Notes under the pieces: model-generated
The model's input: only the letters and a program-made list of their open reading frames with translations
What the model was told of the DNA's origin: nothing
The model's database searches: none
Made by a program: the position numbers and the translations under genes
Source: Desulfobacterales bacterium
GTDB taxonomy: Bacteria; Desulfobacterota; Desulfobacteria; Desulfobacterales; UBA5852
Length of the DNA: 64,000 bases
Direction: 5' to 3'
Assembly (NCBI GenBank): GCA_963674755.2
Contig: CAXXVS010000003.1
Coordinates: forward strand, 128,001 to 192,000
Part shown: positions 15,897 through 57,032 of the stretch, piece after piece
How positions within the stretch are numbered: the stretch's first letter is position 1
Layout of the letters: each line of letters begins with the position of its first letter

Positions 15897-16059
15897 TCCT
15901 TTTACACTTTCATTTGATATTGCGATGTCGCCTGACCGATTGTTTTAATGCCCAAGCGTCGATGCGGATCCCCCATGGCCGCCGTCTGACCGCCGGGAGG
16001 CGCACTATACCGCGTTTGTCCCGCCTTGCCCACCTTTAAAGGGCCGTGGATAAACGACC

Positions 16060-16110
16060 CCTCAGGCCGCAATGCGGCGTTGTCCCGCGTTGCGGAAGTT
16101 CTCATCTGGT
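16060..16110 (-). repeat. partial copy of family B repeat
   Basis: reverse complement cagatgagaacttccgcaacgcgggacaacgccgcattgcggcctgagg nearly identical to 35979-36028. Confidence 0.7.
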
Positions 16111-34189: not shown

Positions 34190-34397
34190 TTGTCCCGCGC
34201 TGAGCATCGGCGATGCGGCCGGATTAAAGCGCGCGGACTGTCTGAACCCTGCTGAAAGCGGGGTGAGTTTCCGCGTGCTCCGGCCGTGTCGACGACGCGC
34301 AGGGCAGCCCCGAAGGGGCCGCGGGACACGGGCGTCTGAAGCCTGTCACGCCGAGGCGTGATTGGTTCGTTTTCTTCCACGTGGAAGAAAATGAACA
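34190..34397 (+). repeat. dispersed structured repeat, family A copy 1
   Basis: ttgtcccgcgc(t/c)gagcatc..gacgcgcagg..cgggacacgggcgtct..ttttct(t/g)ccacg(t/c)ggaagaaaa shared by five loci. Confidence 0.85.
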
Positions 34398-37132: not shown

Positions 37133-37347
37133 TTTGTCCCGCGCCGAGCATCCCGTCTGTGGGCGAAAAAGACGCGGCGACTGTCTGAGTCCGCCGTAGC
37201 GTGAGCGAAGGCGGGCGAGTTTCGGTGCGTCCGACCACGGACGGGACGCGCAGGGCAGCCCCGCAGGGGCCGCGGGACACGGGCGTCTGAAGCTTGTCAC
37301 GCCGAGGCGTGATTGGTTACTTTTCTGCCACGCGGAAGAAAAGTAAC
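37133..37347 (+). repeat. family A copy 3
   Basis: tttgtcccgcgccgagcatc..gttacttttctgccacgcggaagaaaagtaac. Confidence 0.85.
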
Positions 37348-38835: not shown

Positions 38836-40155
38836 TTATTTCAGAGAAGGGTTAAAGTACCCAAACTTCAACGCCGGAAATCTTTTTCTAATTTTCTTCA
38901 ACAACCTCGGCACCCCCATGGGCGCCCCCCCCGGCGCCGCCTCCTCCATCACCTGATAATACCGCAGGGGATCGTAGTTCAGGTTGCGCCACTGGATCAG
39001 GTGAATGGGATGCGCCTCGAGAAAAGCTTCCAGGGCCCGGTATTCCTCCGGCGTGTCCGTAAACCCCGGCAGGTTGAGGTAGTTGAGCGCCACGTGGCCT
39101 CCCCGGGCCAGGGCTTCATCCACGCTTTGGATCACGTTCTCGAAAGTGTAGCCCCGGGGGCGGAAATAGGCCTGGTAACCGTCTTTCCGCAGGCTGTTGA
39201 TGCTCACGCGCATGCTGTCCAGGCCGGCGTCAAAAAGCGCCGCCACCGTATCCGGCAGACTGGCGTTGGTATTGAGGTTGATGGTGCCCCGCTCGGTCTT
39301 CTCCCGGATCAGGCGGATGGCCGGTTCGATGGCTTCGGCCGCCAGCAGGGGATCGCCCTCGCAGCCCTGGCCAAAGCTCACCACCCCGTCCGGCACCCGC
39401 TCCAGGTGCGCCAGGGCGATTTCGGCAATCTCCTCCGGCGACGGCATAAAGGCGATGCGGTCCTGGCTGCAGGGAATCGGAGAGTCCTTTTGCAGGGACA
39501 GGCAGCCCAGGCAGCGGGCGTTGCAGCGGGGCGAGGTGGGCAGGGGCGCTTCGCAGCGGCCGATGAAGAAATTCTTGGCCGCCGGGCAGCCGTATTGCAA
39601 GGCGCATTTCTCCAGGTGCGTTCGCAGGCGATTGTCCGGCAGGGCGGCCTGGAAATGCCGCACCCCGCCCTGCACCTTGTCCAGGGGCATCAGGCGCAGG
39701 TCCTGGCGGCGCTCCCGGTCCACCTGCTGCACGGCCGTATAAAAGGTGCCGGCATGCCAGCCCACGGCCCCGTAGGAGAACAGCGGCAGGGCCTTGGCGG
39801 CTGCCGTCTCCTCATAGGCGCAAAGCCGAGTGATCACGTAGCCCGGGGAGTTGAAGGCCGCCACCGGAAACAGCGGCTCCCCGGGCGCGAAGGGGTTTTC
39901 CGCCAGGGTCACCAGCTCTCCGGTTTCCAGGTCCCAGACCACCGGCCGGCGGTCCGGCAGGTACATGAACTCGCTGCCATGGGGGATGCGCTGCGCCGTG
40001 CGGGTGGTCAGGGGCGTTAAGAGCGGCCCGTCCATGCCCACGGCGGCAAAACCTTCCAGGTCGATGATCTCTCCCTGGGCGGTGGCCACCAGGGCCGTCA
40101 AAAATTGTTCCGGGCGCCTGGCGGCGCCGCGCTGCTTGGGCCGGCGTTTGGTCAT
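38836..40155 (-). CDS. radical SAM protein
   Basis: CNARCLGC (CxxxCxxC), SFGQGCEGDP, NLNTNAS. Confidence 0.9.
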   Translation of the reverse strand: MTKRRPKQRGAARRPEQFLTALVATAQGEIIDLEGFAAVGMDGPLLTPLTTRTAQRIPHGSEFMYLPDRRPVVWDLETGELVTLAENPFAPGEPLFPVAAFNSPGYVITRLCAYEETAAAKALPLFSYGAVGWHAGTFYTAVQQVDRERRQDLRLMPLDKVQGGVRHFQAALPDNRLRTHLEKCALQYGCPAAKNFFIGRCEAPLPTSPRCNARCLGCLSLQKDSPIPCSQDRIAFMPSPEEIAEIALAHLERVPDGVVSFGQGCEGDPLLAAEAIEPAIRLIREKTERGTINLNTNASLPDTVAALFDAGLDSMRVSINSLRKDGYQAYFRPRGYTFENVIQSVDEALARGGHVALNYLNLPGFTDTPEEYRALEAFLEAHPIHLIQWRNLNYDPLRYYQVMEEAAPGGAPMGVPRLLKKIRKRFPALKFGYFNPSLK

Positions 40156-40257
40156 GTAAAAAATTGTCCTTTAAAAACCATAATAGTCACGAATAGGCGA
40201 GTAGGTAGTGAAAATCCGTTGAATTCTCAAGGGGAAAATGCCCGGCCGGCCAAAGCG

Positions 40258-41796
40258 TCAGGGCGCCATGCGGAAAAAGGCGGCATGATTGGAGGTGAAA
40301 AACGGGGGGTCGTTGTTCAGGATGGCGCGGATAGGGGCCGGCTTCTTGAATTCCTTGGCCAGGAAACGCCGCACCGCATCCCGCTGCCAGCCCTGGGGGT
40401 GCACGAACTCCCGGTAGAGGGTCAGATCGCCGTCGTAAAACGGCACGGTCTTAAGCGCGGCCGCCTCCTCGCTGGTGGCCGGCAGGTTGAAGACGGCCAG
40501 GTTGAGGTAATCGATGGCGCCGGCATGCGCCAGGGTGAAGGCCAGGGTGCGGCGGGCGGCCGCCTCGGTTTCGGCCGGGGTGCCGAACAGCAGGTAGACG
40601 TAGGTGGCGATGCCGGCCTGCTTGAGGGTCTTTAGGGCGGTCGAAACGGTCGCCAGATCCACCCCCTTGCCCAGGGCGTCCAGAACGGACTGGTCGCCGG
40701 ATTCCACCCCCAGCTTGAGCATGACGCAGCCGGAAGCCCTGAGGCCGCGGACGAAGGCCGGATCGGCCAGATGGGGCGTGATGCGGGCGAAACCATACCA
40801 GGGCGCGCCGGGTGGATGGTCGATCAGGTGGGCCATCAAACGGGGCGCCAGGGCGTTGTCCAGAAAATGGATCAGGGGCAGGGCGGGCGACGACGCCAGC
40901 GTTTTGAGCTCGGCCACCACCGCCGCGGGCGCCATGGGCCGATAAAGCGTCTTCTCCGCTTTCTCCGGACAGAAGGCGCACTTGCGCCAGTAGCAGCCCC
41001 GGGAAGTGCTGTAGGGCAGCACCCGGCGCGGCGCCAGGTAGTCCCCCCAGGGAAAGGAAGAAAAATCGTATCCGCCGCCGGAACCGGCATCGGCCGGGCG
41101 TCCGCCGCACATGGCCAGCAGGGCCGCTTCCCCCGGCCCGGCCACCAGCTCGTCCACCAGCCCTTGAAAAGGATTGCGAAACCCCGGGATGTTCAACCAC
41201 GAGGTCACCAGCCCGCCCCCGCATACGATTTTGGCGTTCGGAAGCCGGGCCCGGAGCCAGCCGATGATGGCAAAGGCGCACAGGGCGTGGCTCATGAAAT
41301 TGACGGACAGCCCCACGATGGTCGGTTCTTCTTCTTTTAATAAGGTGCCGAGCGTTTGTGAGAAGACGGGATAGAAGGGATTGTCTTCGTACGCTTCGGC
41401 GGCCCGCACTAAATCACCGCTGCGCAGGGGCGAGAGGCGCTGCGCTTCGAAGTTGGCCAGGGAAATAGCCGCATCGTAGGGCCGACCGGCCAGGGCAAGC
41501 GCCCGGTTCACGTCCATCACGGCGCGTTTATAGCGGTCCCGGTGGCGGTAGAGGTCCGGCGATCGCAGGGCGCTCACGTTGGCGGCCCGGTGTTTCAGGG
41601 CCCGCCGCGACCATGTGTCTTCGGCGTCGAAAGGGCGCTGTAGCAGGCCCAGAATTCCGTCCAGGCCGGCATCGTAGACCCGGCAGCGGATCCCGGCGGC
41701 CCCCAGCGTTCCGGCCAGCAGAGCCAGTCCGGCCGGGGGCTCGCAGGGCTTGGCCACGGGGGGATAGATCAGCAGAATGGAAGGCTTGTCCCTCAT
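40258..41796 (-). CDS. B12-binding-type radical SAM protein
   Basis: LLIYPP..PPAGLA N-terminus, VCGGG, GPGE, SRGCYWRKCAFC, LGVESG. Confidence 0.87.
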   Translation of the reverse strand: MRDKPSILLIYPPVAKPCEPPAGLALLAGTLGAAGIRCRVYDAGLDGILGLLQRPFDAEDTWSRRALKHRAANVSALRSPDLYRHRDRYKRAVMDVNRALALAGRPYDAAISLANFEAQRLSPLRSGDLVRAAEAYEDNPFYPVFSQTLGTLLKEEEPTIVGLSVNFMSHALCAFAIIGWLRARLPNAKIVCGGGLVTSWLNIPGFRNPFQGLVDELVAGPGEAALLAMCGGRPADAGSGGGYDFSSFPWGDYLAPRRVLPYSTSRGCYWRKCAFCPEKAEKTLYRPMAPAAVVAELKTLASSPALPLIHFLDNALAPRLMAHLIDHPPGAPWYGFARITPHLADPAFVRGLRASGCVMLKLGVESGDQSVLDALGKGVDLATVSTALKTLKQAGIATYVYLLFGTPAETEAAARRTLAFTLAHAGAIDYLNLAVFNLPATSEEAAALKTVPFYDGDLTLYREFVHPQGWQRDAVRRFLAKEFKKPAPIRAILNNDPPFFTSNHAAFFRMAP

Positions 41797-42092
41797 GTCG
41801 CCGTCGGCATTTGTCCTTGATCCCCCCTATGGTGACGATAGCGGCTCATGGTCCTGATGTGGAGCGGGCCGGCATGAGCGCCGCCAATGTCATGCGGATC
41901 AGATGATCGGTGAAAAATCGGCTTAAAGGGCCGGCTGGCCTTTCGGGGCGACTGTTGCCGTGGCGGCCGAAAGCGCTTGCGAATCGCATCCCGCCTTGCC
42001 AAGCCTGGAGCAGACCTGCTACATAGCTCCCGTCGGAAACGCTTGCCGGGGCCTGGCCCTGACCGAACCGCGGCGCCGGGTTGCATTCCCCG

Positions 42093-43673
42093 ATGGACGC
42101 CAACAACCGGAAATCGGGCATGTATGATGCCATCCTGATATCACCGCATTATCACTACGACAGCGAAGGGCAACCCCTCCCCGCCCAAGATGCCGTCGCC
42201 GTCCAAAATCTATCCATGATCATCCCGCTGGGCATCCTTCACGTGGCCCAGCACCTCCAAGATCGCGGTTACCGGGTGCGCGTGGTGCACCTGCCGCATA
42301 CGTTCTACGCCTTACAGCGCCTGGGCCTCGCCGTCAACCAGATGCCCAATCCGTTAGAAACCATTCTATCCCAATTCCCGGCCCGCATCTGCGGTATTCA
42401 AGCGCATTTCTATCTTTATTGCGGGGGGGCGGTTCGCGTGGCCGAGGTTTACAAAAAGATCTTCCCCGACAGCGCCGTTCTGGTGGGCGGTTTCATGGCA
42501 ACCGCCTGCTGGCAGGACTTCCTGACCATGCCCGGCATCGACGGCGTCGTGCTGGGCGAAGGCGAGAAGACCTTTGAGCGCGTCATCGAAAAAGCAACCG
42601 AACCAGGCACGGGGTTTTTAACCACCATCGACGGCGTCGCCGCCCGCAACGACCAGGGCTGCGGTGTGGCCCGCCCGGCGCGCCCCGACGGCCTGCTGCC
42701 GCTGGAAGCGATGCCGCTCATCGCACCGAAGGCCAAACCGTTTGCCGACCTGTTATGGCCGCGACGCAGCTTCATCAATATTTCCCGCGGGCTGTGCCCG
42801 GAAGCCTGCACCTATTGCGTGGCCAACAACCGGACCATCAACCCGCGTCGGTTTCAGTTCATGCAGATCGATCGGATTCTCGCGCAGCTGCACTTGTATC
42901 AGGACCACGGCATTCAAAGCGTTTTTTTGGGGGAAAATCATTTCCTGGACACGGCCTTCATGAAAACGTTGATCGCGGCCATCATCGGCGAGAAGCTGAA
43001 CCTGAGCTTCGAGCTGGAAACCCACCCCGCGCTGTTTGATGACAAGGACCTCCTGCCTAAAATGGTCACGGCTGGTTTTTACCGCTACACCATGGGCTGC
43101 GAGAGCGGTTCCGACGCTCTCTTGAAGCGCATGGGGCGCCGCTCGAGTTCGAGACAGATCATGGCCGGCGTCCGGCGCATTGCCGACGCAGGGGGGCTGG
43201 CGGTGACCTCCTGGATATGCAACCTGCCGGGGGAGACGGAAGCTGATTTTGCGGCCACCACGGAAATGCTCGCCCGCGTCGTCGCGGCCGGCGGCTTCAT
43301 CTACTGGATCGAAAACCTGCACGTCCTGCCCGGCAGCCGGCTCTACGAGAATCCGGCCCGATGGCAAATCGACATTTTGCTCGCGCGCCTGACCGACTGG
43401 ATCCGCTGGGCGCAGATCTCCAAAACCTTTGTGACCCCCGAGGAGGCCGCCGGGGATCCGCAGCGCTACCTGACCCATCGCAACCACGGGACGACCCCGC
43501 AGGAAATGATCCGGCGCTTCTACATCCAACGCGGACGCGCCCGTGACCTGGTCCCGGAGATGAAGGCCAATCTGGCGGATCGCGCGGACCATCTGCCGCC
43601 GGAACTGGTGCACACCGAGACGCAGAAGCTCGACTGGTATGCCGTCAAGGGCTGGCAGCTGCTGTTGTTCTAG
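42093..43673 (+). CDS. cobalamin-dependent radical SAM protein
   Basis: PLGILHVA, VLVGGFMA, VVLGEGE (B12 domain); SRGLCPEACTYC; GCESGS; LPGET. Confidence 0.9.
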   Translation: MDANNRKSGMYDAILISPHYHYDSEGQPLPAQDAVAVQNLSMIIPLGILHVAQHLQDRGYRVRVVHLPHTFYALQRLGLAVNQMPNPLETILSQFPARICGIQAHFYLYCGGAVRVAEVYKKIFPDSAVLVGGFMATACWQDFLTMPGIDGVVLGEGEKTFERVIEKATEPGTGFLTTIDGVAARNDQGCGVARPARPDGLLPLEAMPLIAPKAKPFADLLWPRRSFINISRGLCPEACTYCVANNRTINPRRFQFMQIDRILAQLHLYQDHGIQSVFLGENHFLDTAFMKTLIAAIIGEKLNLSFELETHPALFDDKDLLPKMVTAGFYRYTMGCESGSDALLKRMGRRSSSRQIMAGVRRIADAGGLAVTSWICNLPGETEADFAATTEMLARVVAAGGFIYWIENLHVLPGSRLYENPARWQIDILLARLTDWIRWAQISKTFVTPEEAAGDPQRYLTHRNHGTTPQEMIRRFYIQRGRARDLVPEMKANLADRADHLPPELVHTETQKLDWYAVKGWQLLLF

Positions 43674-43700
43674 TCGAAGCCATTCCACAAGGAGAGCGTG

Positions 43701-45935
43701 ATGTCCGATCTCAAAGCATTGAACCCCGAAGGCCTCCCCGCCAATTTCAATCTGGCGGAACACGGCGAAAAACCCATTATAACCATAGCCGTTCAGGACC
43801 GCACGCTCCGCCTGACCTATCAGTTTCCCGGCTACAGCTTTGCCGACCTTTCCGCAACGGCCGGAGCGGGCGCCGATCCTGCCGGCCAGACCGATTTCCT
43901 GCACGAGGTCGGCATCCGAGGTACCGGCTTTCTTTCCGAAAGCGGCAAACCGCTGCTGCCGTCATTTGGGCGGTTTCTTCAAATTCCGCCAGGCTTCACC
44001 TATAAGGTCCGGGTAGAAGAAAGCGGTCTGCGCGAACTGGAAAACATGAAGATCAGACCGGCCCAGGAGAATGCCACGGACCAGGCCCCCTGGACCTTCG
44101 AATTCGATGACGCGACTTATGGCAAGGATCACTTGTATCCCGAAAAGATCGTGGAAGTCAGCGAACCGTTTTACATGGACGGCTACCGCACCCTTTGCCT
44201 CCATGTCCGGCCCATGCAGTACAACCCCGCCAAGGAACGGCTCTACTGCTATAGCACCATCGAAGTGGCCGTCGAATTGTCGCCCGAACCCGCGCCCCAG
44301 GAAAGCGGCAAGGCAACCGGCGAAGTGCCCCTGTGGGCTTACCAGGACCAGAAGCGCAGTCTGGAGGGCTTCGGTAACTTTCTTTTCAACCCGGAACGGA
44401 AATTTTTTATCAAGGCGGGCCTTCGGGCGCCGACGGGCGAAATGGTGAAGCGCCGCGCCGATCAGCCGGAGTTTTTAATCCTCTACGGAGAAGCGCTTCA
44501 AACGCCGGCACGCAAGCTCCAGGTCTGGAAACGAAAATGCGGCCTGGATACCGACATTGTTCCCGTGGCGCAGCTTCTGGCCCCGCTGGGGGCGGGCAGT
44601 TCCTGTGCCGACCAGGTGAAGGCCATCAAAACCTTCATCCGGACGATGCGGGGTAAGCCCGGTTCGCCGCTGCGCTATGTCCTGCTCCTGGGCGACATCA
44701 GCACCATTCCCAGCGAAGAACGACCGCGGCCCGGCACAGGGGCGGTCCAATGCGATACCACCGATCTCTATTACTTCACCCACCGGGATGCCGAAAGGGA
44801 CGAATGCCTGTTACCGTGGGTGGCGGGCGGCCGTATTGCCGCCCGGGATGAAGGGGAGGGACTCGCCGTGGTGGACCAGATCATCCGCTACGAAAGCACA
44901 CCGCCCGAGGATCCGGACTATTTTACGCGCATGACCGTGGCAGCCTATTTCGAGGATAAGGACCGCCTGGGCCGGCAGGACGGCCGCGCCAACCAGGCCT
45001 ATATGAAAACCATGGAGTCGATCCGGGACCACATGGTTTCCCACGGTTTCGAAGTTCAACGGGTCTATGTTTCCAACAACCGCAGGCCGGCCGAATTCAG
45101 CGACGGGACGCCCGTGCCGCTGAAGCTAAGAGAAGAACTCATTTACAAGACGGACGGTCCTCTGGCCACCAAAAAACTAATGGGGCTGATCAATACGGGG
45201 CAGTTGATCATCGGCCACCGGGGCCACGGAGATCAGCTGGGCTGGCTCAATCCCCCGCTTAGAACGGCGGATATTCAATCGATTGCCGGCACCACCCCGT
45301 CCATCTTCTTCAGCATCAGCTGCCGCACGGGCAGTTTTGATGGTGCACGGGAATGCTTTGCGGAAGAGCTCCTGGCCATGAACGGCGGCGCCCCCTCCCT
45401 GGTCGCGGCCACCGAACTGTCCGGTTCCTGGCGCAACGACAGTATGATCAAAGCCCTGTTCGATGCCATCTGGCCGGGGGTTATTCCGACCTATCCGGTC
45501 ACGACGATGCGCTTCCCGGTAAAATACTACCGCATGGGGGACATCCTGAACTACGCCAAGGCTTATCTTCTGATCGCCCACGGCGTCAACGCCAACACCC
45601 AGAAGCATTTTGAAATCTATCACGTCGTGGGCGATCCGACGCTCCATGTCTGGGGCAGCGAGCCAGGGCCGTTGCGTCTGCGCACCCGGCTAGCGGAAGA
45701 CATCCTGGTGGTGAACATGAATAGCTGCCCCAGGGATGCCGTATTGTCCGTGTGGTATGAGGAAGATTGCCTGCTGAAGATGGAACCGACGGGAACCCGG
45801 CTGGCCATTCCGCTGATGCTTTTCGATCAATTGCCCGATGATGCCCGAAGCACAAAGCGGAAGAAGCCCTACCAGCTGTCCGTTTACCTCTGGGCACCGG
45901 GCCACCGCCTGGCGGCGTCGCACCTCTGGTTCTGA
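43701..45935 (+). CDS. C25 (gingipain-family) cysteine peptidase with propeptide domain, no signal peptide
   Basis: GKPLLP..PMQYNP propeptide; YVLLLGD, TDLYY, GRI, GHRGHG (His), SISCRTG (Cys), YHVVGDP. Confidence 0.88.
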   Translation: MSDLKALNPEGLPANFNLAEHGEKPIITIAVQDRTLRLTYQFPGYSFADLSATAGAGADPAGQTDFLHEVGIRGTGFLSESGKPLLPSFGRFLQIPPGFTYKVRVEESGLRELENMKIRPAQENATDQAPWTFEFDDATYGKDHLYPEKIVEVSEPFYMDGYRTLCLHVRPMQYNPAKERLYCYSTIEVAVELSPEPAPQESGKATGEVPLWAYQDQKRSLEGFGNFLFNPERKFFIKAGLRAPTGEMVKRRADQPEFLILYGEALQTPARKLQVWKRKCGLDTDIVPVAQLLAPLGAGSSCADQVKAIKTFIRTMRGKPGSPLRYVLLLGDISTIPSEERPRPGTGAVQCDTTDLYYFTHRDAERDECLLPWVAGGRIAARDEGEGLAVVDQIIRYESTPPEDPDYFTRMTVAAYFEDKDRLGRQDGRANQAYMKTMESIRDHMVSHGFEVQRVYVSNNRRPAEFSDGTPVPLKLREELIYKTDGPLATKKLMGLINTGQLIIGHRGHGDQLGWLNPPLRTADIQSIAGTTPSIFFSISCRTGSFDGARECFAEELLAMNGGAPSLVAATELSGSWRNDSMIKALFDAIWPGVIPTYPVTTMRFPVKYYRMGDILNYAKAYLLIAHGVNANTQKHFEIYHVVGDPTLHVWGSEPGPLRLRTRLAEDILVVNMNSCPRDAVLSVWYEEDCLLKMEPTGTRLAIPLMLFDQLPDDARSTKRKKPYQLSVYLWAPGHRLAASHLWF

Positions 45936-45987
45936 GGCAGGCGACCCGGTGTGGGCGTGGCCCGGCGACGTGGGCGTTTAATCAAAG

Positions 45988-46212
45988 CTAATAATCCACA
46001 TTCTCCGGAACATTGAAATCACGTTTGATCGTGTCCCGCTGAGCAATGATTTTATCGACGTCGGCCGCTGTTACACCGTCGTAGTTGTTGCTCGCGAAAA
46101 AATCCACAAGGTCCTGCCGGGTGCAGTCCGGGCTGGCGACAATACCCACAAACGCCGCCGAAAGGTCACGATCGCCACCGACATCGGTCAAGAAATCAAG
46201 AATACCTGCCAT
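45988..46212 (-). CDS. 74-aa small protein, candidate Nif11-like RiPP precursor
   Basis: MAGILDFLTDVGGDRDL..LVDFFASNNYDGVTAADV..KRDFNVPENVDY; AGGAG RBS; last gene of the minus-strand operon. Confidence 0.7.
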   Translation of the reverse strand: MAGILDFLTDVGGDRDLSAAFVGIVASPDCTRQDLVDFFASNNYDGVTAADVDKIIAQRDTIKRDFNVPENVDY

Positions 46213-46315
46213 GCTCTCCTCCATCTCTGTTTGGGGGTCCGAGACCCGTTTATAAACCCCGCACAACACCGCTGAGGGCCTCATCGGAAGCCGACGCCCC
46301 ATGCGGTGTTGGTCT

Positions 46316-47362
46316 CTATACAGGTTGTTCGATGCCGGCTAAAACCCTTTGACAATACGGAACTTCAGGCTGCATATCCATAACGGATGGCGAGGGGTGC
46401 AGCTTGCCGTGCTTGCGGCAGTAATCGATGTAAGAGCACATCGGGCAGGTGGTGTCATCCTGCGCAACCGCTTTGCGGTAGCAATCGCACGTTAATGTCC
46501 TAGTTATCATACCGGGTCGGTATTGTCCAATAATTTCCGGGGTTGAGTGGGCCAGGGTGATATCCAGGTTGGCGCGGACCATCAGTTTGCCCGGCCGCAC
46601 AAGGGCATGTGATCGCGGCACCAGGGGCAGCTGCAGCATCCCAGCCGCTACGTTGACCAGGGGATCGTTGAGGACATGGGTGTTCAAACCGCAAAGGTTC
46701 AGGGCGGATACCGTCCGCACCATTCGCAGAAAGTCATCCGGGCCCAGCAGCTCATCGCAAAAATCGCAGGGCCCGTTATCCAAGCGGAAAAGCTGAATCA
46801 GGGTCAACCGTTCGATGCCGCTGAAGGTTGCGTTCAGTTCCGCCGCAAAATCCGGCAGCTGCATCAGCAGTGTTTGCCCGAGAGCTGCAAAAACCGTCAC
46901 CGCCAGTCCGGCATCGAGGGCCCGGCGGATCCCTTCGGCCGCCCTGCCGTAAGCGCCCGCCCCGCGCATGGCGTCATGGAGAACGGCGGGTCCCTGCAAA
47001 CTCACCGAGATCCCCAGACCAGGGTAGCGCGCCAGCCGGCCGGCGACCGCTTCCGTCAGCAACAGGCCGTTGGTGTTTAAAAAAACGGACTCATAACCCA
47101 GATCGAAGACGGTCTCCAGGAGACCGAACAGGCCGGACCAGAGCAAGGGCTCCCCGCCCGTGAGATGCAGATGCCAAAATCCGGCCCCATAGGCTTCCCG
47201 GCAAAGGGTTTCTGCCAGTGCAGGCGTCAGGCGGTCTTCCGGCGTGACCCCCACCCGGGCAAAGCAGTGAACACATTCGCTGTTGCAGCGCGCCGTCAAC
47301 TCGATGCCCAGGTGGCCAACCTTGGGAACCTCGGGTCTTGGATCGCGCGCCCCAGCCTTCAT
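46316..47362 (-). CDS. radical SAM protein with C-terminal Cys cluster (SPASM/twitch-like)
   Basis: ELTARCNSECVHC, LTGGEPLL, NTNG, VSLQG..HDAMRG; CPMCSYIDYC..PYC; ATGA overlap with upstream stop. Confidence 0.88.
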   Translation of the reverse strand: MKAGARDPRPEVPKVGHLGIELTARCNSECVHCFARVGVTPEDRLTPALAETLCREAYGAGFWHLHLTGGEPLLWSGLFGLLETVFDLGYESVFLNTNGLLLTEAVAGRLARYPGLGISVSLQGPAVLHDAMRGAGAYGRAAEGIRRALDAGLAVTVFAALGQTLLMQLPDFAAELNATFSGIERLTLIQLFRLDNGPCDFCDELLGPDDFLRMVRTVSALNLCGLNTHVLNDPLVNVAAGMLQLPLVPRSHALVRPGKLMVRANLDITLAHSTPEIIGQYRPGMITRTLTCDCYRKAVAQDDTTCPMCSYIDYCRKHGKLHPSPSVMDMQPEVPYCQRVLAGIEQPV

Positions 47363-48348
47363 GGCGCTGTCCTCCCTTCGACGAGCGGCGCTGCCAGGCA
47401 TAGCAGCTCGTGCGCCAGCCCTTCCAGCTGAATCGACGCCATGGTCTTTGCCGCGCCGTCCAGCTCCCGCCTGATTCTGTCTATAAGGGTTTCCACAATT
47501 CCCCCTTGATCAATGGCCTCACGGATTTGTTGGATGCGCACGGCTGAGTTCCTCTCGCAAGGCCGATTCCATAGGTGCCGGACCGGCGGCGGCAGCATGT
47601 AGTAGACCGCAGAGGGGCTTCCGCCGGCCAGATCGGCGTCCATATCCTGCAGATCGTCCATGAGCCGCCAGGCCGTCCCAAAAGCACCGTAGGCGAACTG
47701 CAGGGCCCTGCAAAAAGACTCCTCCGCTGTTATCCCGGCGGCCAGGAGCACCGGCACGGTCATCCAGGTGGCCATCTGTTTCAGAAAATGCGTACAGTAG
47801 CCGTCCAGGTTAGTTACTGCCGGTGGCGCGTCGATGCTGGCATAGTAGTCGTTGGTCATGTCCCTGACGATCCCGTCGCCCTTCGGGATGGCGGCCGCCA
47901 GCGGTTTGAGGCCGGCATTCATCCGCAGCCAGGCCTGGCTGCGGAGTAATAAGCTCAGATGGCTGGCCGGCAGTTGCCCGTCATTGAGATGGTCATCCAG
48001 CGGATGCAGAAAGAGCGCCATGGCATGGGCTCTCAGGGCATGACGGTGGACCTGATGCCGTGGGAGGCCGCCGTCGGGTCTCAATTGTTCCAGCCAGTAG
48101 AGGATGGACCAGGACGGGGCGAAATAGTTTTGGAAGTAATTGAATTCCGGAAAAAAGGGTGTTTTGAAATGCTCCATTAAAAGGACGGCCGCATCGGTGT
48201 GCACGGATTCGGGCAGCGACCGCAGGAGATCCATCATCTCCTGGTTCATCTCATTGCGAAACGCCAGTTCGGCGGTGGCCAGCCGAACGTCACCGAATCG
48301 GGCGACCGGCGTTTTCGCTGCCGTTCTCGCGCTGGGATTATTTTGCAT
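47359..48348 (-). CDS. class I isoprenoid synthase-fold protein (prenyltransferase / terpene synthase-like)
   Basis: two Asp-rich motifs LDDHLNDG and MDDLQD..AD..G in a helical protein. Confidence 0.72.
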   Translation of the reverse strand: MQNNPSARTAAKTPVARFGDVRLATAELAFRNEMNQEMMDLLRSLPESVHTDAAVLLMEHFKTPFFPEFNYFQNYFAPSWSILYWLEQLRPDGGLPRHQVHRHALRAHAMALFLHPLDDHLNDGQLPASHLSLLLRSQAWLRMNAGLKPLAAAIPKGDGIVRDMTNDYYASIDAPPAVTNLDGYCTHFLKQMATWMTVPVLLAAGITAEESFCRALQFAYGAFGTAWRLMDDLQDMDADLAGGSPSAVYYMLPPPVRHLWNRPCERNSAVRIQQIREAIDQGGIVETLIDRIRRELDGAAKTMASIQLEGLAHELLCLAAPLVEGRTAP

Positions 48349-48390
48349 GGCGGAGCATTTTTTTTAACAACGCAGGCGGAGCGGTGCCGA

Positions 48391-51300
48391 TCAACGATTC
48401 CGCTGCGGTTCAGGGTCAGCGGAACGCTCTGCGGGAGCATGTCTTCTCAGGGTTTGCAGACGTTCCTGATCCCATTCGAGGTTAAGCTCATTGAATAGCC
48501 GTTCGGCTTTGTCGAGATAGGTTTCGGCTTCCAGACCGAGCAGTGTGGTATCCTGGACGCCGCCTTCCGCGAGTCGTCGACCGACTTCAAAATAGGTTCG
48601 CGACAACTGGATCCGAGCTCCCAGCCGTTCACCTTCACGAATGGCTTTACACCACCAGCGGCGGGCGCGCCGCGGCCGTTGCGTCAGCCATAAAAAGAGC
48701 CCCATCAGGCGGTAGGCATCCGTGCGATACTGAGCGACCTTGCGCGTTTGGCGCACCAGCGCCCGGCAGTATTGATAGGCCCGCACCTTCCATTTCAGGG
48801 GTTCTCCTTCATCAACGCCGGCAAGGGCTTCCTGCAACCCATAAAGGCCAAGTTCGGCCCGGCTGCGCAGAAACATCGATAACTGCCAGGGTACCGGCTG
48901 CAATTCGCGCCGAATGGCCTCGGCTTGATCCAGGGCCTCTTCAGCGGCGGTACGATCTGCCCGGAGAAGATGAAGTTTGGCCAGACAGCCCAAAAAATGA
49001 ATCATTCCCAAGCCGGATTTTGTTTTTTGGGCGAAGTCGATTCCGGCCGCGATCTCCTTCCGGGCCTCCTGAAGGCGGCGGCATTCCAGAAAAAGACCCG
49101 TATTCAGCAACAGTTTGAGGAGTTGCGAAAAGTCATTCTCGTAGATATCCGATATTTCGTCGAGCTTTTCCACCAGCCATTGGGCCAGGGCGATTTCGCC
49201 CTGATGCAGCTGGGGGAGGGCATGCCAGTGAAGATGCAGCGAAATGAAGTAGACTTCGCCATAATCCAAGTTGTGCTTCACCAGGTCTTCGTCGAATCTT
49301 CCGATGGACTTCCAGTTGCCTGTTAGATAATGATGCAATGTTTCTGAAAAATCGTAGATAATATAAGATTTGAAATTTTCCCGTGTAATTTTGGGTGCGA
49401 CAAATTTCAAAATCTTGTTGCTGATCCCGAAGGAAAGTCCGCTGAACGAAAAGAGCGAACTTGCCCCAACGAGCAGGCCGTAACCAGCATCAAAATGCTT
49501 AAGGTCAAAGCGGGAGATTTGTCCATAGAAATACAGTGATTCTATAAAATAGCGCTTTGGATCAATTATACCCAGCGCTTTCAGTTTCTTATAGAACAAA
49601 TCACAAGTTTGCAGATTCTCCTCGGAAAGAATCCGTCTGAATTTCAACCAGGGCAGCCATAGGCTGGTCAGGAATTGGGCGAAGCTGGGCAACACCTTTA
49701 AAAACGGAAAACGGGCGGGATCGCGCCGCTTTTTCCAATAGAAGGAAAGGGCCCTATCGAAATACTCCACCGCCTCCTCATATTGGCCGCGGTTATAGAA
49801 GGCGAGGGCGATGTTCTTTTCCAGCAACGCTATCTTGGCCGCATCGGCTGCCGAGCCTGATTTCTGCCGGTAGAGGCGCAGCGCCTCCAGATAGTAATGG
49901 AGGGCCTCGCTCGAAGCCGATGTTTTCAGCGCTTCTTCGCCGGCTTTGATCAATGCGGCTTCGGCTTTGTCCAGTTGCTCCGCCCGGCTGTAGTGGTAGG
50001 CCAGCATGCCGTAAAAAGAACTCAATTTTTCGGCAAAAACCTTTTCGATGGTGTCGGCCACCTTCAGGTGCAGCGTCTTGCATTTCTGGGGCAGAATGGA
50101 AGCATAGGCGGCTTCCTGGGTAAGGGCATGCTTGAAGTAGTACTCCAACTCTTCGTGCTGCTCCCCTTCCAGAATAAGCTCCATCTGTTTCAGGTAGGAC
50201 AGGCGGTCGTCCACATTGGAGACCGAACCGGCCACCTCCGCCAGGATGCGGTAGAAAAAATTCCGGCCGATCACGGCCGCCACTTTCAACAGATCCCGGG
50301 CGCCCTCCTCCAAACGGTCGATGCGGGACATCAGCACGTCATTGATCGTGTTGGGGATGGTCATGGTGCCGAACTTGTCGGTCACCTTGAAGGTGCCGTT
50401 CCGCATCACGACGGCCCCTTCGTCGATAAACGAACGGGCGACCTCCTCTATAAAATAGGGATTTCCGCCGGCACGTTGCACGATCTGCCCGACAACTGCG
50501 GTATTGAGACCGCGCAAATCCAGCATGTCGGTAATGAGGGCTTCGCTCATGCGATCGTCCAGGGGCTCCAAGGGAATGTCGAGTTGGTAAGGGAAAAATT
50601 CTTCTCTGATGAAAGATCCGATCCGTTGACCGGTCTCTTCATATCCTGGACGGAAAATGTTGATGAACAAGATGGGGGACTGTCTGACAAGACGGAAAAG
50701 GTATTCCAAAAGTTCGATCGAACTTTTGTCGGCCCAGTGCAGGTCGTCGATAATGACGATCAGCGGCTGCAGCGCGCTGATGCGTGATAAAACTTCGCGA
50801 ACGCTCCGGCGGATTAGTTTTTCCAGGGCTTCGCCTTCAATACCTCGTATTCGCTCACGAAAGGCGTCGGGCAGGCTGATGCCCATCAGGATCGCCATGA
50901 ACGGCAGTACCTCGTTGCCCTCATCTTTAAACAATCCCCGGACCGCCGTCTCCAATTTGCGCCATGTCGCATGTGCGTTGTCTTCTTCCCCGATGTTGGC
51001 CCATTGTCTGAGAAGATCAATCATCGGATGAAAGCTCAAGTTGCGGCCCATGGAGACGGCCTGGCCTTCCAGTACGGTCACCCGCCGGATCGACTCCCGC
51101 TGTCGGAGTTCGGTCACCAACCTGGACTTGCCGATGCCGGCCTCGCCGATCACATTGACGATCGAACCCTCGCCGTTGATCAGCTTCAGCACTTGCAGCT
51201 CCAGCTTGTCCAACTTGCTGGTCCGGCCCACCATCTCGGTGAATATCGCCCGTTCCGAACCCAATTGGGGGCGGTGAATATCTTTGCGACTCGGCAGCAC

Positions 51301-52032
51301 CTTGTAAACCGGTATGCTTTCCGTCCAGCCCTTGATCACCTTTTTCCCCAGGTTTGCGAACTCGAACATGCCATAGGTCTGTCGATAGACCTCCTGGGTG
51401 ACATAGGTGGTCCCCGGTTCGGCCAGGCGCTCCATACGGGATGCCAGATTGACCGTATCGCCGACGGCCTTGAATTCGACCCGCAGGTCATTGCCCAACG
51501 TACCCACCACCACCGGTCCGCAATGAATTCCAATGCGCATGCGGATGGGGTATTCTCCCGCCCGCTGCTGGTTGAAAACAACCATACCCTGATGAATGGC
51601 CCGTGCCGCCCAGAGGGCGCGCTGGGGTGCTTCCTCCACGGCGACCGGAGCGCCGAAAAGGGCCATGATGCCATCTCCGGTCATTTCGTTGATAGTGCCT
51701 TCGAAGTCGTGCACCTGGCGTATCAGGATTTCATAGATCTCATCCATAACCGCATAGGCCGCTTCTGCGCCGAGACGTTCGACCCGTGGGGTGAACCCCT
51801 CCATGTCGCAGAACATCACGGTGACATAGCGGCGCTCCCCTTCGATGCGGTCGCGCTGGCTGAGGATTTTTTTGGTCAAGCCCTGGGGTAAATAGCGCTG
51901 AATCTTAGCGAACTTGTCATCGAAAGACTGGGCGGACAGGCCGCCGCTGGAAGGGGCTGATAGGGCGGTACCGCAATGACTGCAAAAATTGGCGCCTTCC
52001 AGGTTTTCAAATCGGCAGTCGGGGCATTTCAT
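48391..52032 (-). CDS. zinc ribbon-class III nucleotidyl cyclase-AAA/STAND ATPase-TPR protein
   Basis: CPDC..CSHCG; VMFCDMEGFT, GDG, GDTVNLASR; GEAGIGKS Walker A, IIDDLHWAD Walker B, GGNP; helical repeats. Confidence 0.92.
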   Translation of the reverse strand: MKCPDCRFENLEGANFCSHCGTALSAPSSGGLSAQSFDDKFAKIQRYLPQGLTKKILSQRDRIEGERRYVTVMFCDMEGFTPRVERLGAEAAYAVMDEIYEILIRQVHDFEGTINEMTGDGIMALFGAPVAVEEAPQRALWAARAIHQGMVVFNQQRAGEYPIRMRIGIHCGPVVVGTLGNDLRVEFKAVGDTVNLASRMERLAEPGTTYVTQEVYRQTYGMFEFANLGKKVIKGWTESIPVYKVLPSRKDIHRPQLGSERAIFTEMVGRTSKLDKLELQVLKLINGEGSIVNVIGEAGIGKSRLVTELRQRESIRRVTVLEGQAVSMGRNLSFHPMIDLLRQWANIGEEDNAHATWRKLETAVRGLFKDEGNEVLPFMAILMGISLPDAFRERIRGIEGEALEKLIRRSVREVLSRISALQPLIVIIDDLHWADKSSIELLEYLFRLVRQSPILFINIFRPGYEETGQRIGSFIREEFFPYQLDIPLEPLDDRMSEALITDMLDLRGLNTAVVGQIVQRAGGNPYFIEEVARSFIDEGAVVMRNGTFKVTDKFGTMTIPNTINDVLMSRIDRLEEGARDLLKVAAVIGRNFFYRILAEVAGSVSNVDDRLSYLKQMELILEGEQHEELEYYFKHALTQEAAYASILPQKCKTLHLKVADTIEKVFAEKLSSFYGMLAYHYSRAEQLDKAEAALIKAGEEALKTSASSEALHYYLEALRLYRQKSGSAADAAKIALLEKNIALAFYNRGQYEEAVEYFDRALSFYWKKRRDPARFPFLKVLPSFAQFLTSLWLPWLKFRRILSEENLQTCDLFYKKLKALGIIDPKRYFIESLYFYGQISRFDLKHFDAGYGLLVGASSLFSFSGLSFGISNKILKFVAPKITRENFKSYIIYDFSETLHHYLTGNWKSIGRFDEDLVKHNLDYGEVYFISLHLHWHALPQLHQGEIALAQWLVEKLDEISDIYENDFSQLLKLLLNTGLFLECRRLQEARKEIAAGIDFAQKTKSGLGMIHFLGCLAKLHLLRADRTAAEEALDQAEAIRRELQPVPWQLSMFLRSRAELGLYGLQEALAGVDEGEPLKWKVRAYQYCRALVRQTRKVAQYRTDAYRLMGLFLWLTQRPRRARRWWCKAIREGERLGARIQLSRTYFEVGRRLAEGGVQDTTLLGLEAETYLDKAERLFNELNLEWDQERLQTLRRHAPAERSADPEPQRNR

Positions 52033-52297: not shown

Positions 52298-53098
52298 TTA
52301 CGGCGTCCGGCGCAGCGCTTCAAGAATACTCTCCGTTGCCAGGCCGTCCGGTTCCAGTCCCTTATCACGCTGGAAGGCCTGAATCGCCGCACGCGTTTTA
52401 CCGCCGAAGAGGCCGTCGACCGGACCCGGCTGGTATCCCAGATCCGTCAGGCGCTGTTGGACCTCACGGACCATTTTTTGCCGTGCCAAAGCGGCTTGCC
52501 GCGCCCTGGCGGAACGCTGTTTGAGCTGTTTCGTGTAGGCCTGCACACCGGCTTCGGACAAAAACCGGTCCTCGACAGGAATCCCCTGGGCGCGGGCCAG
52601 GCGGAACCAGCGCAGGGCCTCCCGGTCGCTTTGCGCCACCCCCACCCCGCTGGCATACATCAGGCCGAGCATATGCATGGCCGCACCGTGTTCCTCCTTG
52701 GCCGCGGCTTCGAAATAGCGGGCGGCCTCAGACGGGTTGCAGGAAATATAGGCCATGCCCATCAGGTAGTTGGCCGGAGGATAGCCGTTTTCCGCCGAGC
52801 GCCGCATCCACTGCAGATACTGCTTGGGATCGCGTTTGACCCCTTCCCCGGCCAGATACATGTTGGCCAGCATGAACTGACCGTATCCCCCCTCGGCCTC
52901 GGCTGCCGTTTGGTAGGCGGCCAATGCGCCGGAGTAGTCTTTTTCGGCGTAGGCCGTGTCACCTTTGGTCTCGGCGGCACTGGCCTTGAAATAGTTGGCG
53001 GTGGACGTCATGCGCGATTTGACGGAATCCGTAAATCCTGCGCAACCGGTCAGGAACAGCAGAACGAGCGGGAAAACGATCCATTGGCGATTGAACAT
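52298..53098 (-). CDS. lipoprotein with Sel1-like repeats and peptidoglycan-binding domain
   Basis: lipobox LTGC; LANMYLAGEGV and LGLMYASGVGV Sel1 repeats; VQQRLTDLGY..DG.FG..T..AI..FQ PG_binding_1. Confidence 0.88.
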   Translation of the reverse strand: MFNRQWIVFPLVLLFLTGCAGFTDSVKSRMTSTANYFKASAAETKGDTAYAEKDYSGALAAYQTAAEAEGGYGQFMLANMYLAGEGVKRDPKQYLQWMRRSAENGYPPANYLMGMAYISCNPSEAARYFEAAAKEEHGAAMHMLGLMYASGVGVAQSDREALRWFRLARAQGIPVEDRFLSEAGVQAYTKQLKQRSARARQAALARQKMVREVQQRLTDLGYQPGPVDGLFGGKTRAAIQAFQRDKGLEPDGLATESILEALRRTP

Positions 53099-53145
53099 GA
53101 TCAACTCCTGAAGGGCATCGGTTTTTCGATAGGTCATGCACCGGA

Positions 53146-54033
53146 CTATTTGTGGCCGCCACCACCACCTCCACCGCCACTTCCGCCACCGCCGCCACTG
53201 GTATTGTGAACCAGGTAGCGCCGGCCACTCGCCGTGACCACATAAAAGTTGTGGGTATCCGCCACCTGCAAATTGTACAACGGCGTATCGAGGCGTTGGA
53301 AATCGATGCTGACAATCGCCACCATGCGGCCGTCCACATGGACGGCATCGCCCTTGACAAGGTCCCGCACCCTTTTCCAACCGGTCGGCGTGAGCAGTCG
53401 TTCCCCGCCGGTGGTGCGCAGATCGCCGTTGATGGTATAAAGATGGTTGGCCTCGACCCGGTAGCGCTCGACCACCGGACGGCCCACGGCCCTATCATAG
53501 CCGATATCGTAGGTCAGCACCCTGTCGCCGGGCGTGATATCTTTGAAAGGCTTAGCGCTGCCATCTTCCATCTTCACGTGTGCATCCGGCGGGAAGCAGC
53601 CGGTCGATTGCGAAAGAATCGCCTGCTTTTCTTTTTCGAGTTTGTCCACCTGCCGCTCCAAACGTTGGATTTCCTTCTCGGTGCCTGCCACCTGGGCATA
53701 GGCCCCGTCCGCCAGGTCTCCGTAGCTTGGATTTGAGTCCCCTTTGGTCCAGCCTCTGCTCTTGTAGTCGGCGACGCTGTTGATGACACCGATCTGCCGT
53801 TGCTGGGTCTCATATTCTTTGAGGCCGTCGATATGCTTCCGGGTCCGTTCAATATCCCCTTGGACCTCCTCCAACGTGCGGCGTGGTTCCGGCGGCGCCG
53901 GGGCGACTTGGGGTGAATCGCTGGGGGGGGAAGACGATCCGCCGGCGCTCATACAGCCTGCGACGAAGATGAGCAGAAGGAGAATCAATAGGCCGGTGGA
54001 GCGCCTCCCGGTATGCCGCGGTTTTCTTTCCAT
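53146..54033 (-). CDS. lipoprotein with coiled coil, Hint (intein-like) domain and poly-Gly tail
   Basis: lipobox VAGC; GCFPP..GDRV..YNLQVADTHNFYV..LVHN; tail TSGGGGGSGGGGGGGGHK. Confidence 0.85.
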   Translation of the reverse strand: MERKPRHTGRRSTGLLILLLLIFVAGCMSAGGSSSPPSDSPQVAPAPPEPRRTLEEVQGDIERTRKHIDGLKEYETQQRQIGVINSVADYKSRGWTKGDSNPSYGDLADGAYAQVAGTEKEIQRLERQVDKLEKEKQAILSQSTGCFPPDAHVKMEDGSAKPFKDITPGDRVLTYDIGYDRAVGRPVVERYRVEANHLYTINGDLRTTGGERLLTPTGWKRVRDLVKGDAVHVDGRMVAIVSIDFQRLDTPLYNLQVADTHNFYVVTASGRRYLVHNTSGGGGGSGGGGGGGGHK

Positions 54034-56847: not shown

Positions 56848-57032
56848 TTTGTCCCGCGCCGAGCATCGGCGATGCGGACGGATTAAAGCGCGCGGACTGT
56901 CTGAACCCGCCGAAGGCTTGCCGTAGGCGGGTAAGTTTCCGCGTGCTCCGGCCGTGTCGACGACGCGCAGGATCAAGCGGGACACGGGCGTCTTCTTTTG
57001 GTTACTTTTCTGCCACGCGGAAGAAAAGTAAC
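56848..57032 (+). repeat. family A copy 5
   Basis: near-identical to 34190-34310 in 5' half; ends gttacttttctgccacgcggaagaaaagtaac. Confidence 0.85.

Follow-up and report, generated by a model that had tools for sequence, protein, structure and literature searches.

Gene Organization of the Locus

We analyzed a stretch of 64,000 nucleotides from a Desulfobacterales bacterium (GenBank assembly GCA_963674755.2, contig CAXXVS010000003.1, positions 128,001 to 192,000), called the window throughout the text. Between its positions 42,093 and 52,032 it carries six genes for a small peptide, a set of putative modifying enzymes, a protease and a sensor protein. The cluster is a real, recurring system of the type forming peptides that are made on the ribosome and modified after translation (RiPPs), and a variant of prenylated peptide signals which was not seen in the literature searched. 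Our preferred interpretation, to which we give an even chance, is that the terminal tyrosine of the peptide is prenylated and released as a small signal. The features of the cluster are as follows (positions in the window).

48391..52032, minus strand: sensor with zinc ribbon, class III nucleotide cyclase, STAND/AAA16 ATPase and TPR region (CYC), 1213 amino acids; core
47359..48348, minus strand: enzyme with the fold of the trans-isoprenyl diphosphate synthases (IDS), predicted Tyr prenyltransferase, 329 amino acids; core
46316..47362, minus strand: radical S-adenosylmethionine (SAM) enzyme with reduced SPASM domain, 348 amino acids; core
45988..46212, minus strand: precursor peptide of 74 amino acids, Nif11-like helical leader and short tail ending with Asp73-Tyr74; core
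45991..45996, minus strand: codons of Asp73 and Tyr74, where the cut (Asp|Tyr) and the modification are predicted
43698..45935, plus strand: C25 (clan CD) cysteine protease with propeptide, predicted to be Asp-specific; accessory
42093..43673, plus strand: B12-binding radical SAM enzyme, probable C-methyltransferase; accessory

All six open reading frames (ORFs) were confirmed at these positions and strands, and the layout agreed with the initial annotation of this DNA. On the minus strand CYC and IDS are separated by 42 bp, IDS and radical SAM genes overlap in ATGA, and 103 bp lie between radical SAM and peptide genes. The plus-strand pair converges on this run across 52 bp. A good ribosome binding site precedes the precursor gene. 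In several relatives the alignment with the B12 protein starts at residue 10, and the ribosome binding site before 42093 is weak, so Met10 (42120) may be the start of the B12 gene. Pfam matches backed every label except those of the IDS and the peptide, for which no match was obtained at E 0.1. None of the six proteins matched an NCBIfam family over its cut-off. The G+C content of the cluster is 0.54-0.61 compared to 0.61-0.65 for the flanks, and IDS, peptide and C25 protease are each encoded once in the genome. The cluster stretch was spanned by a single contig of one sequencing run, from which it may originate, and near-identical contigs exist in two other studies. Promoter and terminator scans remained at chance level (4 versus 4.8 and 15 versus 15.2, respectively); a sigma-70-like site ahead of CYC (52185-52156) was not counted as evidence.

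Recurrence of the Cluster and Its Core Genes

Searching for the IDS, 253 proteins were identified among 8000 candidates, and 9 of 401 genomes of the phylum, including that of the window, possess the enzyme. With the IDS alignment the best 80 of 93 genome stretches gave 78 loci, and the best 80 of 239 from metagenomes gave 80. After dropping identical rows and matches of less than 270 amino acids, 146 IDS rows, the window included, were kept. The genome and metagenome loci span Thermodesulfobacteriota, other deltaproteobacterial groups, Spirochaetota, Cyanobacteriota and Bacteroidota. Gene contents were counted for the 73 loci whose downstream flank measured 5 kb or more, with the upstream flank uncontrolled and singletons, for example an S8 protease in L027, uncounted. 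The radical SAM gene was found in 63 of them, the peptide by hidden Markov model (HMM) in 60, the cyclase-STAND gene in 46 and a membrane histidine kinase in 13. Less frequent were B12-type radical SAM genes of three families (36), geranylgeranyl-reductase-like genes (22, with scores under cut-off), a second SPASM enzyme (10), proteases of the C25 (13), S8 (5) and S53 (5) type, and isopentenyl diphosphate isomerase (4, over cut-off).

The gene order CYC-IDS-radical SAM-peptide was repeated in dozens of loci, so the grouping is not due to chance. From the counts over the 73 loci and the 145 rows related to the window we conclude that sensor, IDS, radical SAM enzyme and peptide form the core, with protease and methylase being swappable. 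Co-occurrence of the genes across genomes, the check named with the earlier proposal, was thus borne out, with a refinement: the C25 protease (13/73) and the B12 enzyme family of the window (12/73) are exchangeable accessories. The IDS was the sole enzyme common to all versions of the cluster. A version from Cyanobacteriota and Bacteroidota (L065, L075, L080) consists of the IDS, a Tyr-ended peptide, a protein of 270-300 amino acids without a match to anything, and an FAD-linked oxidase, and lacks the radical SAM enzyme. The second SPASM enzyme is PapB-like and was confined to one clade (L025, L030, L112, L125, L127, L134, L137, L150, L159, L174), in which five loci add an S53-type protease. 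No exporter had been visible at the locus, and no exporter family recurred among the neighbours examined.

The Precursor Peptide Ends With a Conserved Tyrosine

Using an HMM of the leader only, with the last residues trimmed, 104 peptides (96 distinct) were detected among 11,429 small ORFs. A terminal Tyr was present in 92 of the 96, compared to a background of 2.8%. The four other ends belong to L034, with three more residues behind the Tyr, to L053 and L142, whose longer tails run past an in-place Tyr, and to a second copy in L161, and five loci missed by the HMM hold divergent Tyr-ended ORFs at the same place. A library search yielded 531 clusters at 50% identity with a terminal Tyr in 144 of the best 150 representatives; the profile employed included the Tyr column, and all 150 representatives also match the leader-only HMM. 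Across the family the tail varies from position -2 onward, with Val at -2 in 4 of the 144 Tyr-ended representatives. The small ORF, previously only a candidate, is conserved and has the appearance of a RiPP precursor. Its invariant C-terminal Tyr is likely the site of modification.

The leader resembles that of Nif11 peptides (Atlas 0.78), which we treat as a lead only. The window peptide matched no Nif11 profile (TIGR03798, PF07862), and one of five relatives reached 17.3 bits versus a cut-off of 32.3. A double-Gly motif is mostly absent (GG, GA or GS within the last 25 residues in 16 of 91 peptides), and no C39 transporter was found among the neighbours scanned. Several loci carry two precursor genes (L024, L056, L058, L085, L093, L130, L166), and in P0137 two leader units are found within one chain. 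The L034 copy (L034:2011-2256), without radical SAM gene and with three residues past the Tyr, derives from a genome which also harbors a C25-type copy (L032); P0208 and P0245 show similar extensions.

The IDS as Predicted Tyrosine Prenyltransferase

The structure model of the IDS (pLDDT 90) was assigned to the trans-isoprenyl diphosphate synthase fold by structure comparison, in line with the fold first suggested for this protein. The best structural matches were polyprenyl synthases (9jqs with Z 21.3, a root mean square deviation of 3.4 and 284 aligned residues), and Ord1 (9v4g) gave Z 15.9, a deviation of 4.0 and 270 aligned residues. A PDB sequence search with the IDS profile returned only matches at E 0.085 and 1.2. 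Both Asp-rich motifs are kept, with D118, D119 and D123 of the first motif in 143, 146 and 142 of the 146 rows, respectively. Chain-elongating trans-IDS enzymes (PF00348) are defined by an RR loop following the first Asp-rich motif and by a KT motif. The RR loop was found in 0 of 146 rows and Gln191-Met192 occupies the place of the KT motif, which argues against chain elongation.

According to a 2026 review all characterized trans-IDS-like prenyltransferases act on Trp via a Gln before the second Asp motif (PMC13290415). At this site Arg228 stands in all 146 rows, opposite the Gln of 4jxy and 8hdl in the alignment, and an Arg would be suited either to a phenolate or to a carboxylate at the terminus. 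In contrast to the ComQ/PalQ/ChrP class with its Gln and Trp acceptor, the window combines Arg228 with a Tyr-ended peptide containing no Trp, and therefore the enzyme was not filed as a ComQ/PalQ member. Common to both are the fold and a peptide that varies around a single fixed aromatic residue, as for ComQ/ComX of Bacillus, where ComX signals, and for other trans-IDS-like prenyltransferases (PMC13290415).

A complex model of IDS residues 14-325 with the peptide scored 0.79, and the best of three controls 0.01; the mark applied to such scores was reached by 116 of 157 solved pairs and by 2 of 215 mismatched pairs. Runs agreed in at least 88% of the contacts with a partner pLDDT of at least 83, and the confident contacts pair IDS residues 39-69 with residues 3-22 and 50-66 of the leader. 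PDB searches revealed no similar complex, but the model might have passed by likeness. The model supports binding of the precursor leader to the IDS. An ABBA-type enzyme is known to depend on a Nif11 leader for prenylation (PMC12715784; bioRxiv 10.64898/2026.10.04.756588).

We weighed whether the IDS leaves the peptide alone and makes a terpenoid, or transfers one onto a small molecule, the Tyr being a substrate of the radical SAM enzyme only. Such a function would agree with chain-elongating synthases as best structural matches, with IDS relatives in two Calothrix genomes for which no precursor was found using this query, and with the single case L034, in which the IDS is present, the radical SAM enzyme absent and the Tyr non-terminal. 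The missing RR loop and KT motif, the leader-IDS complex model passing its controls, and three other loci without radical SAM enzyme, in which peptides keeping the terminal Tyr directly follow the IDS, speak against it, and we regard it as very improbable. Transfer of an isoprenoid chain onto the terminal Tyr is the function that we propose, and the isoprenoid-related neighbours counted above, the geranylgeranyl-reductase-like genes and the isopentenyl diphosphate isomerase, speak for it. The Calothrix-group IDS relatives without a nearby precursor are those of L069 and L071-L073, and the two genomes searched yielded none.

The Radical SAM and B12-Radical SAM Enzymes

In the radical SAM enzyme seven Cys residues were invariant in 95 of 95 sequences, namely C26/C30/C33 of the SAM motif and C306, C309, C315 and C337, which we take to be the second auxiliary cluster of the SPASM motif. 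His272 is invariant as well, and no other Cys is conserved. One Cx2Cx5C...C set was found instead of the cysteine sets for two auxiliary clusters. The top Foldseek matches of the model were SuiB, anSME and ChlB. The SuiB/anSME fold together with the cysteine pattern indicates a SPASM-type enzyme with one auxiliary site. As a small correction to the initial annotation, just one of the two SPASM cysteine sets is kept. The best NCBIfam matches belonged to the MftC, NirJ2 and AhbD types and all stayed well short of their cut-offs (MftC, TIGR03962, 68.4 bits versus 265).

In the mycofactocin pathway MftC catalyzes the oxidative decarboxylation of a C-terminal Tyr, and the core is set free by MftE (bioRxiv 10.1101/821413). 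MftA/MftC/MftE and the cluster share a C-terminal Tyr, a radical SAM maturase and a peptidase freeing a very small core. They differ in the peptide end (Val-Tyr there, Asp-Tyr here), the MftC score far under cut-off, and the prenyltransferase-fold enzyme and sensor found here. A mycofactocin-type cross-link was rejected since position -2 varies across the family, leaving the cross-linked product of the initial annotation without support. As position -2 offers no constant partner, the radical SAM step reads most simply as a decarboxylation that forms no cross-link.

Following the logic of mycofactocin and PQQ, the product might also be a peptide-derived cofactor or lipid, for instance a prenylated and methylated phenol or quinone, the sensor only regulating the genes. 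The chemistry of MftC and MftE and the neighbours of reductase, methyltransferase and FAD-oxidase type would fit this idea. We consider it rather improbable, as no partner dehydrogenase recurred among the neighbour clusters, the distribution is patchy (9/401 genomes), the accessory enzymes swap between lineages, which would alter the structure of a cofactor, and the sensor is the steadiest neighbour. A released signal is the product that we prefer.

The B12 enzyme matched PF02310 and PF04055 over cut-off and every named family under cut-off. Both domains are those of the class B B12 radical SAM methyltransferases. A search at 1e-60 through 400 further genomes from the phylum detected no orthologue. 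Other lineages possess other B12-type radical SAM enzymes or a class I methyltransferase. The protein is probably a C-methyltransferase and may methylate the peptide. Asp at -2 was tried and rejected as its target, since L130, L141 and L157 carry the B12 gene, no C25 protease and no Asp at this position.

The C25 Protease and the Asp-Tyr Tail

The C25 protease was identified with 152 bits by PF01364 (cut-off 23) and with 66 bits by the propeptide family PF08126. His510 and Cys542 align with the catalytic dyad of gingipain. Its N-terminus lacks a hydrophobic signal stretch as inspected by eye, in accordance with the signal-less protease annotated before. Among the 400 other genomes one close relative (48%) was found, which is located in the same cluster. 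Propeptide, His/Cys dyad and a Trp on loop L5 are shared with the gingipain family C25 proteases and caspases described (PMC4357240). The window protease differs in lacking a visible signal peptide, in carrying basic residues on helix 1 and on loop L5 where the control C25 proteases have none, and in its predicted acidic P1.

Asp at -2 was found in 18 of 18 loci with a C25 protease versus 1 of 45 loci without. Left out of this comparison were loci without a Tyr-ended peptide, of which L084 and L142 have a C25 protease, and loci without C25 protease ending within 5 kb, among them L109, L110 and L135 with the ends Asp-Tyr, Glu-Tyr and Asp-Tyr, respectively. All 17 distinct peptides of the C25 loci carry this Asp, with positions -3 to -8 being variable, and its presence does not follow the B12 gene (L130, L141, L157). 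The C25 loci belong to two separate IDS clades, between which the leaders are 26% identical, as much as the background; accordingly, we count about two (two or three) independent origins, not eighteen.

The specificity of the S1 pocket in clan CD is determined by helix 1 and the loops L4 and L5, with Asp163 in gingipain R and Arg87/Gln184/Arg233 in caspase-7 (PMC4357240). As a control, C25 proteases outside the cluster were compared (27 of 30 control loci aligned). Trp578-Arg579 on loop L5 was found in 16 of 17 cluster proteases versus 0 of 22 controls with residues there, Lys/Arg at 437 in 16/17 versus 1/27, and Arg/Lys at 430 in 15/17 versus 2/27. Column 436 held Asp/Glu in none of the 17 versus 11 of the 27, the region of gingipain Asp163 itself not being aligned. 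The Ser-Trp-Arg of the protease was considered as a caspase motif, a correspondence weakened by the alignment of Trp578 with gingipain Trp284. From the covariation with Asp and the basic charge near the pocket we infer an acidic P1, which, if right, would place the cut between Asp73 and Tyr74 and free one residue. By cleavage at Asp|Tyr the protease may thus set a single modified tyrosine free. C25 proteases are not established as leader proteases: a 2023 review of RiPP leader proteases, in its available part, mentions neither C25 nor gingipain nor caspase (PMC10885120).

The same enzymes could instead yield a longer lipopeptide in the style of ComX and PalX, with the C25 protease cutting further upstream and Asp73 being kept, for example for receptor contact. 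For ComX and PalX the released form is a short peptide (PMC10853753), and the tails of the C25 loci keep Phe at -9 (14/17) and Asp/Glu at -10 (16/17), the latter forming a second possible acidic cut site. For the clade with Cys tails and the second SPASM enzyme this alternative probably holds. For the window it appears unlikely, because besides the Tyr the Asp at -2 is the sole tail position invariant in both C25 clades and no exporter recurs among the neighbours examined.

The Sensor and Its Substitutes

Guanylate_cyc, AAA_16 and TPR domains were assigned to the sensor by Pfam. The cyclase keeps the metal-binding D76 and D120, N195 and R199, and Walker A and B are intact. Glu116 is found at the site of the ATP-binding Lys, as in PDB 2w01, which we take to be Cya2, and unlike in 3r5g and 1wc0. 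Among 47 distinct cyclase domains of the family this site holds Glu in 39, Gln in 6 and Lys in 2, and the other two long cyclases of the window genome have Lys and Gln. The second specificity site is Lys in 34 and Thr in 10 of the 47 domains, compared to C, S, T, H, A and G of known guanylyl cyclase types. Guanylyl cyclases carry Glu at the first site, with Cya2 as a bacterial example, and the rules for guanylyl cyclases are less clear-cut (PMC4215837). Cya2 (PDB 2w01) and the window cyclase share this Glu (PMC4215837); they differ at the second site (Gly there, Lys here) and in the fusion to STAND and TPR domains. A preference for GTP, with probable formation of cGMP, is somewhat favored.

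The TOMM kinase/cyclase fusion TIGR03903 likewise combines cyclase and AAA ATPase and is tied to a RiPP class by name. The sensor reached 301 bits versus the cut-off of 705.75, no kinase domain is present and the locus encodes no cyclodehydratase.

In the 145 related rows CYC was found in 91, a kinase in 20, both in 0 and neither in 34, many of the latter on short contigs. In Spirochaetota a 7TM-DISM kinase-receiver-SpoIIE protein beside the peptide gene replaces CYC. The co-transcribed sensor proposed in the initial annotation thus accompanies the set nearly always, as cyclase or as kinase. That two unrelated types fill the sensor slot, never both at once, just as PalP adjoins PalQ/PalX, was counted in favor of signaling. 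The stronger divergence of the TPR region (42-52% versus approximately 60% for the cyclase and ATPase parts) was discarded as a sign of ligand variation for being too ordinary.

Immune sensors of the STAND type are known. An anti-phage or conflict system, in which a STAND sensor with cyclic-nucleotide output and a caspase-like protease cooperate and the modified peptide serves as guard or self mark, would explain the STAND-TPR architecture, the clan CD protease and a CHAT-TPR protein in the sensor slot of L063. The ordinary membrane histidine kinase in the Spirochaetota slot, and the absence of nuclease, TIR or pore effectors among the recurring neighbours examined (PADLOC not searched), leave it, in our judgment, the least probable of all alternatives. 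Perception of the tyrosine product by the sensor is the role preferred here. The protein in the sensor slot of L063 (6518-9865) is of the TPR-CHAT (clan CD protease) type, and an AAA-GAF-histidine kinase is encoded downstream. In L112, L129, L134, L137, L146 and L171 the sensor is split into cyclase-ATPase and TPR genes, or frameshifted, near residue 500.

Proposed Formation of a Tyrosine-Derived Signal

Taking these observations on gene content, co-occurrence, conserved residues and folds together, we propose the following sequence of events. The precursor would dock on the IDS by its folded leader, as in the complex model. The IDS would then transfer an isoprenoid chain onto the terminal Tyr, at the phenol oxygen or the ring, which we regard as more likely than not. 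The radical SAM enzyme may act on the same residue, most likely by an MftC-like removal of the carboxyl group, an assignment to which we give less than an even chance. Addition of a methyl group would be catalyzed by the B12 enzyme. Subsequently, the C25 protease would cut after Asp73 and free a single modified tyrosine or tyramine, for which the chances appear balanced. Since the freed product would be small and lipophilic, no exporter would be needed. Finally, binding of the product at the TPR region of the sensor could switch the cyclase; that the product is the sensor ligand, deduced from the exchange of sensors and from the Pal and Com systems, falls just short of an even chance. In its most far-reaching form, which we consider improbable, the ribosomal peptide would be a mere handle for anaerobic bacteria, on which a first Tyr-specific trans-IDS prenyltransferase and a radical SAM enzyme remodel one tyrosine, before a caspase-like, Asp-specific C25 protease frees a hormone-like molecule that acts via an NLR-like STAND receptor on cGMP formation.

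We were aware of several observations which weigh against a released prenylated tyrosine. A protease of the three families counted is missing in 50 of the 73 loci. In the clade with the second SPASM enzyme a Cys is present in the tail of 10 of 10 peptides versus 8 of 47 elsewhere, and Cys tails combined with this enzyme suggest that the product there is probably a longer peptide. The contacts of the complex model all involve leader residues, and Tyr74 is not among them. The Calothrix genomes with an IDS relative and no detected precursor belong here as well. The window IDS itself has drifted, with 66% identity to that of L018 compared to 80-83% for the neighbouring genes and 100% for the peptide, and has Leu189 where 127 of 146 rows have Arg. 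The tally of C25 protease and Asp stems from two or three origins, so that its Fisher value overstates the association; furthermore, the Asp163 region is outside the alignments and the register of Trp-Arg relative to caspase Arg233 is not fixed. Of the 47 cyclases 8 lack the Glu, and linkage of the sensor could also mean that it regulates the operon and does not bind what the operon makes.

Comparison With Known Systems and Significance

The closest known system is PalP/PalX/PalQ of Paenibacillus alvei (PMC10853753). Both consist of a sensor, a long-leader precursor with a conserved C-terminal aromatic residue and an IDS-fold enzyme engaged by the leader. The Pal system has a Trp acceptor, an NHLP leader and a histidine kinase as sensor, whereas Tyr, a Nif11-like leader and a STAND cyclase are found here. 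The three-gene Pal cluster, as far as described in that source, has no radical SAM enzyme, B12 enzyme or C25 protease, all of which are present here. Judged by sequence, the cluster may work like PalP/PalX/PalQ with a mycofactocin-like step added; it appears to be neither mycofactocin nor TIGR03903 nor to encode a Nif11 precursor at profile level. The literature searched contained no description of this gene set, with subscription papers and supplements poorly covered and the PalQ network tables being a place which could hold these proteins.

If correct, the proposal would add a RiPP family whose precursors number several hundred (531 clusters) and occur in sulfate reducers, syntrophs and spirochaetes. 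To our knowledge, peptide signaling has been little described in these organisms. It would also provide the first Tyr acceptor for trans-IDS-like prenyltransferases, for which the available part of the April 2026 review gives Trp only (PMC13290415). The enzyme would make almost no sequence demand beside the Tyr and could be useful for C-terminal lipidation. Further outcomes would be caspase-like specificity in a C25 protease and, for the many orphan cyclase-STAND-TPR proteins, a candidate ligand.

Neighboring Genes and Repeats in the Window

A second pair of genes, for a B12-radical SAM (40258-41796) and a radical SAM enzyme (38836-40155), was considered as part of the cluster and rejected, as it was found only in the closest relatives. 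This pair (38836-41796, minus strand) is syntenic only in L018, L019, L022 and L104-L106. Similarly, two genes at 52298-54033 (minus strand), one for a Sel1/peptidoglycan-binding protein, the other for a small protein that has Gly-rich ends and a Hint domain at its C-terminus, were not accepted as cluster parts, being present only in the closest relatives; in four of these they stand upstream of the sensor. L018, the nearest relative, contains a geranylgeranyl-reductase-like gene (16445-17593), for which no counterpart exists at window positions 41807-41963 and only a 31% relative in the window genome. Finally, stretches of 55-76 bp at window positions 34321-34396, 37272-37342, 16052-16108 and 56899-56953 match one region of L018. 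They probably match each other as well, as a small dispersed repeat.

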